Shown here in pieces: positions 796-51,183 of a stretch of DNA of 64,000 nt. Each line of letters opens with the position of its first letter. Position 1 is the stretch's first letter. The notes beneath the pieces were generated by a model. It saw nothing but the letters and a program-made list of their open reading frames with translations. It had not been told where the DNA came from and searched no databases. Origin of the DNA: Candidatus Nealsonbacteria bacterium (GTDB lineage: Bacteria > Patescibacteriota > Minisyncoccia > Minisyncoccales > JANBVM01); NCBI GenBank assembly GCA_047456295.1, contig CP179887.1, positions 367,159-431,158 of the forward strand, in the 5' to 3' direction. A program made the position numbers and the translations under genes.

Positions 796-3700
796 TTAGG
801 TTTTTTTAACTCCCAAACCAAAGCCTGATGCCAATTTTCTGATTTTAAATTCCTTTCTCTCTTTGAACTCCTGTTTTTTCCCGATATTCCATTCCTGAAC
901 CGGTCTCAAATAACCAACAATCCTTGAGTAAACCTCACAGGGTTGTTTAATAGTGCACTTAGGACAGAAAAAGTGTTCTCCCTCTAAATAACCGTGAACC
1001 GGACAGATTGAGAAGGTGGGGGTTAAAGTAATGTATGGCAAATGGAAATTCTCAAAAACTTTCTTGATTAGATTCTTAACATTCTGGATTTCAGAAATGC
1101 GCTCGCCTAAAAACAGGTGCAAAACAGTATTATGAATAAACACCAAGCAGTTCTTTCCAGCCAGATAATTGTGATTCTTCTTTGTCATTAAATCGTAAAA
1201 CTGATTATCTCTTACGTCAACCTTAGAGACTTCTTTTACTCTAATTACTGGGAGATAACGTTTTTTTCTGTTTGATAAATCGTTTTTGATTTTTGAGGGA
1301 TTAATCGTAAGGATTAATTTTTCTTTTATCCTGGTTGCTTCATAGGTGGGAATCCTTAACCGAAATCCATCTACTTCATTGCTTCTTTTGGTGGGTTTTT
1401 CGAATTTTGAAACCATGATACCAGCTGTAGTACAAACTTCTAAAATATCTTCTGCTAACCTGGCAGAAACAGTAAAATATTCTATATCGCCATTTCTTTT
1501 TAATATATCTCCATCACTGTCGATTAATCCGCTCAAAAGAGCAAAGACATTAGCGTTGGTAATGTTTTCTTTCACCTTTTTAGGAATAGAAACATCATAG
1601 ACCTTCTCCCCTGCCTTAAATCCGTATTTAAAGAAAAACTTCCAAACTTCTTTTTTAGAAGTAGAAACCTCTTTTAAAACCTTGCTCCTTTTATCATTAT
1701 TAATTACTTTAACATTACAACCAAAATACTTGTTGAGTATTTGAACTATTTTTTCTAAAGATTTCTGATGTCTGCTAAAGAAGCGTAATTTATATCTTTT
1801 CAAGTTATTTCCTCCTCTATTATCAATAAATTTTGAAAGGCAACCATCACCAATAAAAAATCCGATAAGCCACATTAAATCATCATTTAGCTCTGTGGGG
1901 TGAGCTAAATATAAATTGGTAGAATTTTGTAAAATATAATCGCCGAATTTCAACTCATCTGCTCTCTTTTCCACTACCCTATATTTTGGCATTGCCCGAT
2001 ATCTTATCTGGCAATCTGAATTCCACTTTAAATGGACAGCGAAACCCTTGATATTTCCTACTCTTTCTTTACAAACAGGGCAACTGGGGTTAACCTTGAC
2101 TTTCTCTAAAACAAAGAAAGGATGCCAATCAGAAGTAGTAATATCTAAATTTCTTTCTCCTTTTATCCTGATTTTATTGTGTCTTTTAACATCAATCTTC
2201 ACTGCTTTTAAAATTTCGTCCCATTCACCTGCTTTTTTCTCCTGGTTATAACTCAAAGCCTTAATAGGTCTTAATCTGCCAAAATTTTCTACAATGTACT
2301 CTATTGGTATTAATCCTTTATCGGTCAATACCTTGTTTCCTTTTTCAATACATCCCCCCGTATACTTACACTGGGCTTTATCCTGGAGCTTTAAGGCTTC
2401 AAAGGCATCAGTGGTATGATTTACAGGTAATTGGGTTGAGTTGGTGTAGTAAGGCACCTTTTTTGTTCCAGCTGTAATGATGTCTGGATAATTCTTTCTG
2501 TCTTTTAGGGCTAAACGATAAGCAGTAGATTCAGCTGGAGTGGCTTCCAGATTATATATGTTTCCTGTCTCTTTTTGATATTTCACCAATCTTTCTCTCA
2601 TGAAATCCATTACCTCCAAAGTAAACCTCTGTCCTCTTTTTGAACCAATGTTATCTCCGATGAAATTCAAAAGGGCTTCGTTCATTCCAACCAGACCTAT
2701 GGTTGAAAAATGGTTATCGTAATACCTGTCTCTCATTTTCTTTATGCCCTCTAAATAGTGTCTTGAATAAGGATACAAACCTTTTGTTATAAAATTCTCC
2801 AGCACCTTTCTTTTTATTTCCAGACTTTCTTTTGCCAGATCCATTACCTTTATTAATCTCTTAAAGAAATCTTTTTTTGTCTTTGACAGATAACCGATCC
2901 TGGGAAGATTGATGGTAACCACCCCGACGCTGCCTGTGAGGGCGCCTGAACCAAACAATCCTCCTCCTCCTCGATTATGAAGTTCTTTTAAACTTAATCT
3001 GAGCCTGCAACACATGGATCTCACATCCTCTGGATTCATTTCAGAATTAATGTAATTTGCAAAATAATTAGTGCCGTACTTTGCCGAAGCTTTAAAAATT
3101 AAATCAAAAGCTGGATCATCCCAGGGAAAGTCTTTAGTAATATTTATGGTAGGAATAGGAAAATGAAATGGTCTTCCGCTCTTATCTCCATCCAACATTA
3201 TTTCATAAAAAGCTTTGTTAAAAGTCCTCATCTCTTCTTCAAACTCACTATAAGTTTCTTTCTGGGGTTTTCCTCCAATAATCACTGGCTGTTTAGCAAA
3301 GGCAGGAGAAGGTTTCAAATCTAAAGTAATATTAGAAAAAGGACACTGAAAACCTACTCTGGTAGGAACAGCCATGTTGTATAAAAATTCCTGGAAAGCC
3401 TGCTTTACTTGTTTGTAATTTAGGTTGTCATAACGAATGAAAGGAGCTAAAAGAGTGTCAAAATTTGAAAAAGCAACAGCTCCAGCTACCTCGCCTTGAA
3501 GAGTATACAAAAAATTTACTATCTGACCTAAAACTACCCTGAAATGTTTTGGTGGCTTTGATTCTATTTTACTTGAAACCCCGCCAAACCCCCTAAGCAA
3601 AAGGTCGTAAAGATCCCATCCCATACAATAGCAAGCAAGGCTGTCTAAATTATGAATATGAAAATCTCCTGACTCAAGAGCTTCTCTTATTTCTTTTGGA

Positions 3701-45127: not shown

Positions 45128-45266
45128 GATGGCGACGAAGAAGAAAAAGCATAAATTGCTAAATCTTCTGTCAGATAACTCATTGGTTATTTACCAAGAG
45201 TCACATCCTACTGTTTTAATTATAGTAATAATTAAAAAGGTGTGTCAAGTGGATAGACAAGACATA

Positions 45267-45338
45267 TGCCCCCAGAAGGATTTGAACCTTCCCCGACATC
45301 TTAGTAGGATGTAGCTCTGTCCAATAAGCTATGGGGGC
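45267..45338 (-). tRNA. tRNA with anticodon ACU; class I cloverleaf with Arg-like features
   Basis: Acceptor GCCCCCA/TGGGGGC, D arm GCTT-ATTGGACA-GAGC, anticodon arm ACATC-CTACTAA-GATGT, 4-nt variable region, T arm GAAGG-TTCAAAT-CCTTC, discriminator A. Folded by hand. Confidence 0.8.
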
Positions 45339-45351
45339 ATATGCCAACTAC

Positions 45352-49667: not shown

Positions 49668-49747
49668 ATTTTAATAAAATGTATCCCTCAATCTTATTGA
49701 AGGCTTGTCAATTTAAGCTTATCTAATTTTTCTGTTAAAATCAAAGT

Positions 49748-49830
49748 ATGAAAGAAATTACCAGAAATAAAAAAGCCTAGTTTGATCATAAAATCTTGAA
49801 AAAGTCCATAGCTGGAATTTCTTTGATGAG
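49748..49830 (+). pseudogene. Decayed duplicate of the smpB 5' end
   Basis: ATGAAAGAAATTACCAGAAATAAAAAAGCCTAG... matches smpB 50363-50445: 31 of the first 32 nt are identical and, by hand count, roughly three quarters overall. There is an in-frame TAG at codon 11. It is preceded by TGtTAAAAT at 49733-49741. Confidence 0.8.
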
Positions 49831-49842
49831 AAAACAAACAAT

Positions 49843-49871
49843 TTGACAAATATTACTTTAGAAATTATCAT
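49843..49871 (+). promoter_or_regulatory. Consensus-like promoter of the toxin-antitoxin cassette (TTGACA-17 nt-TATCAT), -10 ends 7 nt before the ATG
   Basis: TTGACAaatattactttagaaatTATCATaaagttgATG read directly. Confidence 0.55.
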
Positions 49872-49878
49872 AAAGTTG

Positions 49879-50100
49879 ATGAGTCAAAAAACTTTAGAAA
49901 AAATAAATCGAGAAATTTCTAATCTCAAGGGAGAAATGAAAATCTTTCGTTCTCTTATTATTGGACTTTTAGGTAAAGATCGAGAAGGAGAATATAGATC
50001 AGAATTTGTAAAAAAAATTTTAAGGCTCTCTAAAAAAAGAGCAGGTTTTGCCTTTAAAAATGCTGAATCTTTCCTGAAACAAATCCAAAAAAGCTTATGA
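49879..50100 (+). CDS. Putative antitoxin (73 aa)
   Basis: Small ORF immediately upstream of, and overlapping (ATGA), a RelE/ParE-family toxin. The antitoxin family was not recognised. The ORF-track start at 49843 is the TTG of the -35 box. Confidence 0.6.
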   Translation: MSQKTLEKINREISNLKGEMKIFRSLIIGLLGKDREGEYRSEFVKKILRLSKKRAGFAFKNAESFLKQIQKSL

Positions 50101-50366
50101 TTCGAATAATCTATAGTAAGCACTTTTTAAGGGAAACTAAAAAATTCCCCACAAATATTCAGACAAAGCTCGCAGAACAATTAGAGCTCTTACAACAGAA
50201 TCCTTTTCATTCCTTTTTACACACTAAATCTTTAACCGGTCGACTAGCCGGTTTTTATTCGTTTAGAATTACTCGGGATTGGCGGGTGATTTTTCAATTT
50301 AAGAAACCAGAGATTATAAAGTTAATTGGAATTGGTCATCGTAAAGATATTTATAAAGAAAAGTGA
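50097..50366 (+). CDS. RelE/ParE-superfamily toxin (89 aa)
   Basis: ...LTGRLAGFYSFRITRDWRVIFQFKKPEIIKLIGIGHRKDIY matches the RelE/StbE-type consensus (R-x-G-D/x-Y/W-R-hydrophobic-I, ...GHRKDIY). Confidence 0.8.
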   Translation: MIRIIYSKHFLRETKKFPTNIQTKLAEQLELLQQNPFHSFLHTKSLTGRLAGFYSFRITRDWRVIFQFKKPEIIKLIGIGHRKDIYKEK

Positions 50367-50815
50367 AAGAAATTACCAGAAATAAAAAAGCCTACTTTAA
50401 TTATGAAATCCTGAAGAAATTTGAGGCAGGGATTTCTTTAATTGGCCAGGAGGTAAAATCAATAAAATCAGGAAGAATAAACCTGAAGGGAACTTATGTA
50501 ATATTAAAAGACCAAGAGGTCTTCTTGGTGGGAGCCAATATCCCTCCTTACCAGCCCAAAAACGCCCCCCCTGATTATAATCCCAAGAGGTCAAGGAAGC
50601 TTTTGCTTAAAAAGCCTGAAATCAAGTATTTAATCGGCAAAACAAAGCAAAAAGGTTTGACAATTGTGCCTTTAAGGGTTTATACTATAAAAAGAAAAAT
50701 AAAGTTAGAGTTTGCTCTGGCCAAAGGAAAGAAACAATTTGACAAGAGAGAAATAATCAAAAAAAGAGAAACAGAAAGGGATATAAGGAAAATAATAAAG
50801 GGAGAAAAACCTTAA
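50363..50815 (+). CDS. smpB: SsrA-binding protein
   Basis: NKKAYFNYEILKKFEAGISLIGQEVKSIK pattern. GTG start overlaps the toxin TGA (GTGA). The tmRNA gene lies 22 nt downstream. Confidence 0.9.
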   Translation: MKEITRNKKAYFNYEILKKFEAGISLIGQEVKSIKSGRINLKGTYVILKDQEVFLVGANIPPYQPKNAPPDYNPKRSRKLLLKKPEIKYLIGKTKQKGLTIVPLRVYTIKRKIKLEFALAKGKKQFDKREIIKKRETERDIRKIIKGEKP

Positions 50816-50837: not shown

Positions 50838-51176
50838 GGGGGTGACATGTTTCGACAGAAATTTAACCAAGAAAGGCAGGTGGAGTATTCTCAAATCTCC
50901 TAAAACTTTGAGAAAAAAATAAGTGCCAACTTATTTCAAAAACCTGCATTAGCTTACGTCTAATGCCATCTGCCTTATTGATTCTCGATAAGTAAGGTCA
51001 GGTGTCATATATCGAGATAGATAGTTTTTAAAGACCTAGAAAAGCTATTGAAAAAACAGGTCAAAAGCAGAGAAATTTTGTCCAATTTAAATTTTCTGTT
51101 ATTCTTTAATTGGAATAAACTTGTAGAACTGCCTTGGTGATAATTTTTGGACGCGAGTTCATCCTCGCCACCTCCA
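50838..51176 (+). ncRNA. ssrA: tmRNA (SsrA)
   Basis: 5' GGGGGTGACATGTTTCGACAG pairs with 3' CACCTCC, giving a G3:U wobble. T arm GCGAG-TTCATCC-CTCGC. PK1 is formed by GGAG/CTCC plus TCTCAAA/TTTGAGA. The tag frame is GCC AAC TTA TTT CAA AAA CCT GCA TTA GCT TAC GTC TAA (50925-50963), preceded by AAAAAAATAAGT, like E. coli AAAAAUAGUC. Confidence 0.85.
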
Positions 51177-51183
51177 CAAAACC

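Follow-up and report, generated by a model that had tools for sequence, protein, structure and literature searches.

A toxin-antitoxin (TA) cassette of about 0.53 kb, comprising its own promoter, a gene for a DUF2683-like antitoxin and a gene for a RelE/YoeB-type toxin, was found between two copies of the 5′ end of smpB in a 64,000-nt stretch of DNA (the window; contig CP179887.1, positions 367,159 to 431,158) from Candidatus Nealsonbacteria, a lineage of the candidate phyla radiation (CPR)/Patescibacteria. The cassette probably inserted into the first codons of smpB by homology, with no dedicated recombinase, in part of a recombining population, where it would act as a selfish addiction module. 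It is an insertion/deletion polymorphism in the population, cassettes with closely related toxins adjoin smpB in other lineages, and some homologous cassettes at other genes carry direct repeats at their flanks.

Pairwise comparison of the two smpB copies showed a direct repeat with an offset of 615 nt, in which 49749-49779 and 50364-50394 are identical at 31 of 31 positions and the first 32 nt of the copies differ solely in the start codon, ATG upstream and GTG downstream. Beyond this core, 49780-49830 matches its downstream partner at 34 of 51 positions (67%), and the flanks outside the repeat fall to ~32% identity; the whole repeat (49749-49830 against 50364-50445) therefore measures 79-83 nt, a perfect core of 31 nt followed by 51 nt at 67%. 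The score of 34 for the in-register partner was the highest among all 51-nt stretches of the window, where the runner-up scored 30 and the background had a mean of 14.2 and a standard deviation of 3.3. The repeat was also the sole direct repeat of at least 30 nt within 3 kb anywhere in the window, which holds no further copies of the cassette and no other long close-range repeats. These comparisons bear out the claim of a first-pass annotation of this DNA that the 5′ end of smpB is duplicated, and the similarity exceeds chance beyond the first 32 nt. The same annotation described the upstream copy as diverging progressively, which the alignment contradicts, as 31 positions without a mismatch are followed abruptly by 17 mismatches in 51 nt (~33%).

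The upstream copy falls into two parts. The native smpB promoter and original ATG (49733-49750, forward strand), with an extended -10 element, TGTTAAAAT, at 49733-49741 and a gap of 6 nt before the ATG at 49748, are now stranded 5′ of the cassette and lead into the upstream copy of the 31-nt core (smpB codons 1-10; 49749-49779, forward strand), which is native sequence, the same as in alleles with an empty site. This is followed by a decayed smpB-like piece carried on the cassette (codons 11 to ~35; 49780-49842, forward strand), which is interrupted by a TAG at codon 11, lacks ~11 nt internally and abuts the TA promoter. The remnant translates as MKEITRNKKA, a stop and FDHKILKKSIAGISLM, and its SmpB counterpart reads (V)KEITRNKKAYFNYEILKKFEAGISLI. 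The downstream copy (50364-50445, forward strand) is the functional 5′ end of smpB, native from its second base on and matching the empty alleles bar known strain single-nucleotide polymorphisms (SNPs).

Under uniform decay at the neighbouring 33% divergence, 31 perfect matches have a probability of 3.5e-6. Because so long a perfect stretch is improbable at that rate of decay and the strains are only 1-2% apart, the boundary at 49779/49780 is best read as the point where recombination joined resident sequence to a diverged smpB-like piece, and not as a product of decay; since strains differ by 1-2%, the 33% divergence cannot have arisen in place after the alleles separated. The diverged half of the upstream copy thus appears to be foreign, a part of the cassette lineage that did not decay where it now lies. 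Among the occupied alleles the piece at 49780-49842 changes faster than its surroundings (5-6 changes per 95 nt, compared with 1-2.4% elsewhere). No donor of the 51-nt piece was identified among the sequences compared: it matches the resident gene at 34 of 51 positions and the smpB of the closest outgroup lineage (L004) at ~37 of 51 by hand count, and the sister locus L171 is no closer.

Conspecific contigs, recovered by exact-sequence look-up and sharing 98-99% nucleotide identity, included both the occupied and the empty alleles that the first-pass annotation had proposed to seek in relatives. Occupied alleles, with the order stub, cassette, smpB, are those of the window, L001, L002 and L183. 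In the empty alleles (L009, L010 and L003), 80 nt separate HMG-CoA reductase from an undisrupted smpB with an ATG start, and the empty site consists of the upstream promoter of the window, its ATG and the 31-nt core running straight into native codons 11 onward. The promoter and start are identical to those of the window in all three, and the SmpB of the window is 98% identical to that of the empty-site alleles. The next lineage out (L004-L008; three complete genomes and two contigs, SmpB 82%) is likewise empty, with the same promoter-ATG architecture. As the empty alleles carry the upstream promoter, ATG and core, the upstream promoter and start represent the original 5′ end of smpB, and the earlier view of the upstream copy as a dead remnant that keeps them stands. 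The flanks of the cassette are mosaic: the left flank of the window is L003-like from -650 to -314, and SNPs specific to occupied alleles span about -197 to +616. This pattern shows the cassette apparently being exchanged between strains, flanks included, through ordinary homologous recombination. The flanking SNPs of the window, compared with occupied and empty alleles, do not polarise gain against loss of the cassette.

The toxins nearest to that of the window (71-75% identity) are encoded directly before smpB in other Paceibacteria (L171-176, L178, L179/180 and L181/182), and one toxin among the nearest (P0125) adjoins uvrA. The window, L171 and L178 have a left junction in common, at which smpB sequence runs to near codon 35 and is then followed by the TA -35 box (AAATTTGACA), with small deletions that differ. 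The perfect stretch between the repeat copies lies at codons 1-10 in the window, at codons 23-35 in L171 (38/38) and at codons 12-17 in L178, and this variable position argues against a fixed site-specific crossover. The upstream remnant of L178 encodes an undecayed SmpB N-terminus (MKILAQNKKANFDYQ...), unlike the N-terminus of the functional copy (MKVLVQNRKANFDYQ...); because the remnant is intact and yet differs from the functional copy, the present 5′ end of smpB in L178 would have come with the cassette. The earlier suggestion of integration at the 5′ end of a gene, with the incoming element supplying a replacement start, agrees with these comparisons, as the GTG and the toxin junction lie on the cassette side in the window and codons 11-35 travel with the TA promoter in the sister cassettes. 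Divergences between the smpB-associated lineages are alike for toxin (67-75% identity), antitoxin (60-75%) and SmpB (62-75%). A derivation of the smpB-like piece from an internally deleted smpB was considered on account of a match between 49829-49849 and 50725-50745 in the 3′ part of smpB (19/21); this was judged a chance similarity, with 4 of 500 shuffles reaching the score, and was rejected because sister cassettes show smpB codons 30-35 and the -35 box at that place. In L171, which belongs to the P0121 lineage, an open reading frame (ORF) of 71 aa with no assigned function (2491-2706, reverse strand) starts directly beside the 38-nt smpB remnant, at the place where codons 1-22 of smpB and its native promoter should lie. 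Its placement suggests a further rearrangement there.

The wider family was surveyed at 170 toxin-homologue loci from GTDB genomes and Joint Genome Institute (JGI) metagenomes by scoring the similarity between the DNA 5′ of the antitoxin and the DNA 3′ of the toxin (score of at least 50), with position-shifted controls. Flanking direct repeats of 30-120 nt were present at 24 of 128 testable loci (~20 of them distinct), compared with 4 of 331 shifted controls (Fisher p = 6e-11), and in the repeat-flanked loci that were measured the unique part of ~510-550 bp held nothing but the promoter, antitoxin and toxin. The target was read for five cassettes of other sub-lineages, which lie at ychF, gatB, fmt or a DHH-family gene and have the same duplication pattern; a few of the genes beside such repeats are clearly essential. 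Two of them (L147, 346-1012; L167, 264-1005), with toxins ~76% identical to each other, sit at the 5′ end of ychF, which encodes a GTPase; here a remnant, MSLKIGIVGLPNVGKSTLF..., has its own promoter, the intact ychF starts MLSIGIVGLPN..., and the copies differ almost only synonymously. At the 3′ end of gatB in L042, both copies of a 102-nt repeat (1739-1840 and 2522-2623) with a perfect centre of 46 nt encode the GatB C-terminus, and the repeat arms differ at 4, 2 and 14 first, second and third codon positions. The repeat target is the 3′ end of a convergent fmt in L018 and the promoter with the first five codons of a DHH-family gene in L011, and some targets are intergenic sites. When the coding targets were pooled, the copies differed at 8, 8 and 38 first, second and third codon positions, in 34 synonymous and 13 non-synonymous codons (chi-square p = 6e-8). 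The coding repeat copies thus look like functional orthologues from different lineages and not like a gene end and its decaying duplicate.

Several further features of these loci were recorded. At four unrelated loci (L012, 1091-1197; L134, 3331-3370; L029, 3265-3280; L022, 3273-3348) the downstream repeat opens right after the toxin with nearly the same motif, TT(C/A)AAAGAACT, which could be a shared target or a conserved end of the cassette. The 89-nt repeat of L030 (2636-2724 and 3265-3354) holds a terminator-like hairpin and has inverted termini (TAGTTCTAAC...GTTAGAACTG), recalling a miniature inverted-repeat element. Loci on contigs labelled Methylobacter, Methylocucumis, Ignavibacteria and Phycisphaerales (L059, L063, L067 and L072), with toxins of 32-38% identity, have flanking repeats of 48-120 nt, and CPR bacteria may not be alone in showing the pattern. 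An Rfam scan found no RNA gene in 13 repeat-flanked sister loci, and RNA genes were accordingly set aside as landing sites. A phage or plasmid vehicle was also rejected, the best matches of the toxin profile reaching at most 39% identity on IMG/VR contigs and at most 37% on PLSDB plasmids.

Both genes of the cassette have the gene order and sequence features expected of a type II TA module with a toxin of the RelE superfamily, an assignment supported by the profile and structure comparisons. The promoter (TTGACA-17-TATCAT; 49843-49871, forward strand) matched 11 of 12 positions in the promoter scan, lies 7 nt 5′ of the antitoxin ATG, and is kept in L171, L178, L179 and L181; given the 7-nt gap between promoter and ATG, the TA mRNA is probably leaderless. 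The putative antitoxin (73 aa; 49879-50100, forward strand) matches Pfam DUF2683 with an E value of 3.6e-4, under the gathering score, and 21 of 29 members of its family match the same model, the best at 2.9e-7. Members of this family (65-90 aa) are always encoded directly 5′ of the toxin gene and overlapping it in 91 homologous loci. Searches of the antitoxin returned no NCBIfam match, no solved relative and no ribbon-helix-helix, Phd/YefM or other DNA-binding domain, and a single-sequence structure model gave two long helices at low confidence (predicted local distance difference test score, pLDDT, 70). The toxin (89 aa; 50097-50366, forward strand) overlaps the antitoxin gene in an ATGA and its TGA stop overlaps the smpB GTG, so that promoter, ORFs and both overlaps were found as first annotated.

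The identification of the 89-aa ORF as a RelE/ParE-type toxin was likewise upheld by profiles above their cut-offs, namely PF05016 ParE_toxin (30.1, cut-off 23), PF05015 HigB-like (28.4, cut-off 27) and NCBIfam TIGR02385 RelE_StbE, an mRNA interferase family (41.6, cut-off 27.9). YoeB was the best solved relative in a search with a profile of 28 homologues. An AlphaFold2 model of the toxin (pLDDT 93, predicted template-modelling (TM) score 0.82) has the elements E-H-H-E-E-E-H, and its top folds in a Foldseek search of the PDB were M. tuberculosis RelE1, YoeB, YafQ and archaeal RelE (TM 0.75-0.8), with ParE2 lower (0.63). All 21 family-invariant residues, including K44, R57, R60, R63, R82, K83 and Y86, are present in the window protein; in our reading of the alignment R63 aligns with YoeB R65 and a lysine stands at the position of YoeB Glu46. 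From this fold and these residues the toxin is probably a ribosome-dependent mRNA endonuclease. Its homologues usually end in RKDIYK followed by the stop, and the window toxin has two extra C-terminal residues (EK) from the smpB junction. Polymorphisms among the occupied alleles were two synonymous and one non-synonymous in the antitoxin, and four synonymous and one non-synonymous in antitoxin and toxin together; with polymorphisms mostly synonymous and with toxin fold and invariant residues intact, the TA genes look functional. A stop codon in L183 (Logan SRR14803104; toxin 697-965, equivalent to window 50097-50365), where codon 63 is changed from CGG to TAG (R63) and the toxin is cut to 62 aa, shows that some of the population carries a decaying toxin. 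The G+C content of 49831-50362 is 29.5%, compared with 34-35% in the neighbouring genes and the whole window, a difference in composition that hints weakly at a foreign source. Inside the toxin gene, over the conserved LTGxLAGFYSF motif, lies a terminator-like hairpin (AACCGGTCGACTAGCCGGTT and then a T-run; 50234-50263, with hairpin and T-run at 50234-50253) that could attenuate transcription into smpB; a similar hairpin was judged by eye to be present in the L171 sequence.

The intact smpB (150 aa; 50363-50815, forward strand) matches PF01668 with an E value of 8e-52 (175 bits over residues 4-146) and begins at a GTG within a GTGA overlap with the toxin stop; its homologues assign the organism to Candidatus Nealsonbacteria. 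The smpB of the empty alleles, with its -10 box 6 nt from the ATG, is probably leaderless. In the occupied alleles smpB lacks both its own promoter and a recognisable Shine-Dalgarno sequence, so its transcription has to start at the old promoter, via the 10-codon stub, and/or at the TA promoter; read-through from both is probable. Translation would probably proceed by termination and reinitiation after the toxin ORF. Three alleles have an intact toxin, and in these smpB starts with GTG; L183, the one with a truncated toxin, has ATG. The gene for transfer-messenger RNA (tmRNA), ssrA (50838-51179, forward strand), follows 22 nt 3′ of smpB and was detected by Rfam at full length (RF00023, 134 bits, E value 2e-53); ARAGORN missed this gene. 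A promoter match (TTGACA-18-TATACT, 11/12) at 50657-50686, in the 3′ half of smpB and ~150 nt 5′ of the tmRNA, may drive ssrA independently. Neighbouring housekeeping genes are HMG-CoA reductase, upstream on the opposite strand, and infC (IF3) and the genes for L35 and L20 downstream.

We favour a mechanism in which the cassette lineage would carry smpB-5′-like sequence on both flanks, an old, decayed piece of codons 11 to ~35 on the promoter side and a start codon on the toxin side. Recombination with a resident smpB would occur within the first 31 nt of that gene. In this way codons 1-10 of the resident gene, with their ATG and promoter, would be fused to the decayed foreign piece, giving a dead stub that could encode a peptide of at most 10 residues, while the intact resident smpB would now start at the GTG supplied by the cassette and overlapping the toxin stop; the displaced resident end with its promoter would be left outside the cassette and the regenerated gene inside. 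The intermediate could be a circle with one crossover or a linear DNA, its two ends recombining at staggered positions. Patescibacteria have been reported to keep genes for homologous recombination and comEC-type DNA uptake (PMC12455944).

Several points weigh against this mechanism. L179 and L181 have no detectable smpB remnant. The parallel divergence of TA and SmpB would also be compatible with long vertical co-inheritance with losses. No circular or linear intermediate was seen in the sequences analysed, a single crossover with a circle requires a cassette core identical to the resident core over 31 nt, and 31 nt of identity is short for RecA-type recombination. The 31-nt core region is moreover not conserved between lineages, which hints that the hybrid arose earlier within the species or that the ends recombined at staggered points. 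The covariation of GTG and ATG with the state of the toxin fits a translational coupling that was lost in L183, and that contrast comes from one allele.

The main competing account is an ancient insertion in a Paceibacteria ancestor with a true target duplication of ~105 nt (smpB codons 1-35), followed by vertical descent, decay in place and short-patch gene conversion, with the empty alleles (L009, L010, L003 and the L004 lineage) arising as secondary precise deletions. We regard it as unlikely, although it has a number of observations on its side. TA and smpB are linked in at least five lineages with roughly parallel divergence, the left junction common to the window, L171 and L178 fits one founding event, the perfect stretches differ in place by lineage, as sporadic conversion would give, a deletion between 31-nt repeats 615 nt apart is easy and restores the exact empty allele, and L179 and L181 lack remnants. 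However, a neutral remnant that is 33% diverged should not hold 31 perfect bases beside a sharp boundary, and the L178 remnant, undecayed and unlike its own functional copy, can be neither ancient nor converted. The closest outgroup by SmpB is empty with the same architecture, and most differences between the repeat copies at ychF and gatB are synonymous. A second rival, a miniature integrative element mobilised in trans by a tyrosine or serine recombinase, with the 31-nt core as its attachment site, would account for an identical core, diverged arms and a regenerated gene end, the classical attL/attR signature, but it is very improbable: neither the cassette nor the genes called within ~6 kb to its left and right include an integrase or transposase, sister cassettes at smpB have the perfect stretch at different codons, and other sub-lineages use ychF, gatB, fmt or intergenic sites with 30-120-nt repeats that have no common core. 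Least credible, to the point of being negligible, is a metagenome-assembly artefact in which strain variants were collapsed or joined at smpB. The site is polymorphic and the genomes are metagenome-assembled, as such an error would need, yet four independent assemblies from different samples and pipelines (the 689-kb contig of the window, GCA_030665965.1, Logan SRR30888635 and SRR14803104) have the same structure, each with its own SNPs, and analogous structures occur in many unrelated assemblies.

A different kind of explanation holds that the linkage is adaptive, with smpB and ssrA placed behind a RelE-type toxin so that SmpB output is tied to toxin synthesis and rescue becomes proportional to the number of RelE-cut mRNAs. 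RelE-cleaved mRNAs are reportedly substrates of tmRNA. The GTGA overlap of toxin stop and smpB start, the GTG of the three intact-toxin alleles against the ATG of the truncated one, and the retention of a TA cassette beside smpB in at least five lineages are in its favour. Nevertheless, smpB was not near any of ~140 homologous cassettes with toxin identity of 67% or less, and only the closest sub-lineage (at least 70%) adjoins it; sister sub-lineages lie at ychF, gatB, fmt or uvrA; empty alleles and a dead-toxin allele coexist in the same population; the promoter-like site within smpB may drive ssrA separately; and the old smpB promoter still reads into the operon. An adaptive linkage is thus improbable, and the functional meaning that the first-pass annotation saw in the association of RelE, SmpB and tmRNA finds no support as a family trait. 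Its placement of smpB and possibly the tmRNA as distal members of a TA operon holds in part, the stop/start overlap with smpB being real and the membership of the tmRNA doubtful in view of the promoter match at 50657-50686. The link between cassette and smpB is best seen as reflecting a landing via portable homology and not a selected RelE-SmpB circuit.

The arrangement resembles several known systems without coinciding with any of them. Genomic islands and prophages integrate at the 3′ end of tRNA or tmRNA genes, with an attP that carries a replacement gene end. As in those islands, incoming DNA replaces a gene end at smpB, the native end is left as a remnant, and an identical core has diverged arms; unlike them, the unit of ~0.6 kb lies at the 5′ end of a protein-coding gene, no recombinase gene is nearby, and the crossover position, seen as the place of the perfect stretch, varies among sisters. 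The module itself is comparable to RelBE, YefM-YoeB and DinJ-YafQ in toxin fold and profiles, in its antitoxin-first overlapping operon, in small size and in a presumed ribosome-dependent mRNA cleavage, and departs from them in having an antitoxin of an uncharacterised DUF2683-like family and a lysine at the YoeB Glu46 position. Homology-facilitated illegitimate recombination, and likewise Campbell-type single-crossover integration, have reportedly been described in natural transformation. There too a short identity anchors foreign DNA and the insertion is flanked by duplicated homologous sequence; those, however, are laboratory results on arbitrary DNA, whereas at smpB the homologous piece seems to be inherited stably as part of a cassette lineage.

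The closest precedent is the insertion with long target duplication of restriction-modification genes, in which there is no mobility gene, repeats of tens to ~100 bp often span a start or stop, a relative retains the empty site, and the species are mostly competent (Nobusato 2000, Gene 259:99; PMC2853133; PMC3874152). The window cassette is similarly a compact, addiction-type unit with no transposase or integrase, flanking repeats, a clean empty site and a target gene that survives. By the features used in PMC2853133, its repeats exceed 30 bp, no mobility gene is linked to it, and the empty site in close relatives carries one repeat copy. It differs in that the two copies are not both duplicates of resident sequence, only the 31-nt core being resident in both and the next 51 nt or more being apparently foreign, in that its cargo is a RelE-family TA pair, for which the DNA breakage invoked by those authors is unavailable, and in that its host is a CPR bacterium and the copies at other loci differ at synonymous sites. 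The foreign part of the repeat and the synonymous differences point to homology-guided entry with replacement of a gene end. No report of long target duplication for TA modules, or of TA modules at smpB, was found in the incomplete literature that could be searched, and the wider flanking-repeat pattern of TA cassettes appears to be undescribed so far.

One feature elsewhere in the window was recorded as an observation in its own right. A 74-nt tRNA (45266-45339, reverse strand; Rfam tRNA, 60 bits) has a short variable arm and the anticodon ACT, and would be a Ser(AGU) reader with A34 in a type-I body, which is unusual.

The spread of chromosomal TA modules between genomes is largely unexplained, and hitch-hiking on plasmids, phages or transposons is usually assumed. 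The present locus gives an occupied/empty polymorphism at nucleotide resolution, together with ~20 distinct homologous cassettes with like repeats, and suggests that a bare TA pair can spread by using the ends of conserved genes as landing pads. Tentatively, and with rather less confidence than we place in the event at smpB itself, this can be generalised to CPR bacteria harbouring mobile TA cassettes of ~0.5 kb that are free of recombinases. Each cassette lineage would have its own portable homology (smpB, ychF or gatB ends) and would enter diverged genomes via host recombination, probably after DNA uptake; the target gene would be regenerated, addiction would penalise loss through the flanking repeats, and the window would have caught one such event in a population. 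The locus extends long target duplication to a cargo unable to cut DNA, which argues against nuclease activity as its cause and for host recombination. The juxtaposition of RelE and SmpB offers a natural test bed for whether translation of a toxin gates the synthesis of a rescue factor, and the present evidence suggests that the linkage is incidental. The smpB case also shows how a selfish element can replace the promoter and start codon of an essential gene and leave its function intact, which bears on how expression evolves in the minimal genomes of CPR bacteria.

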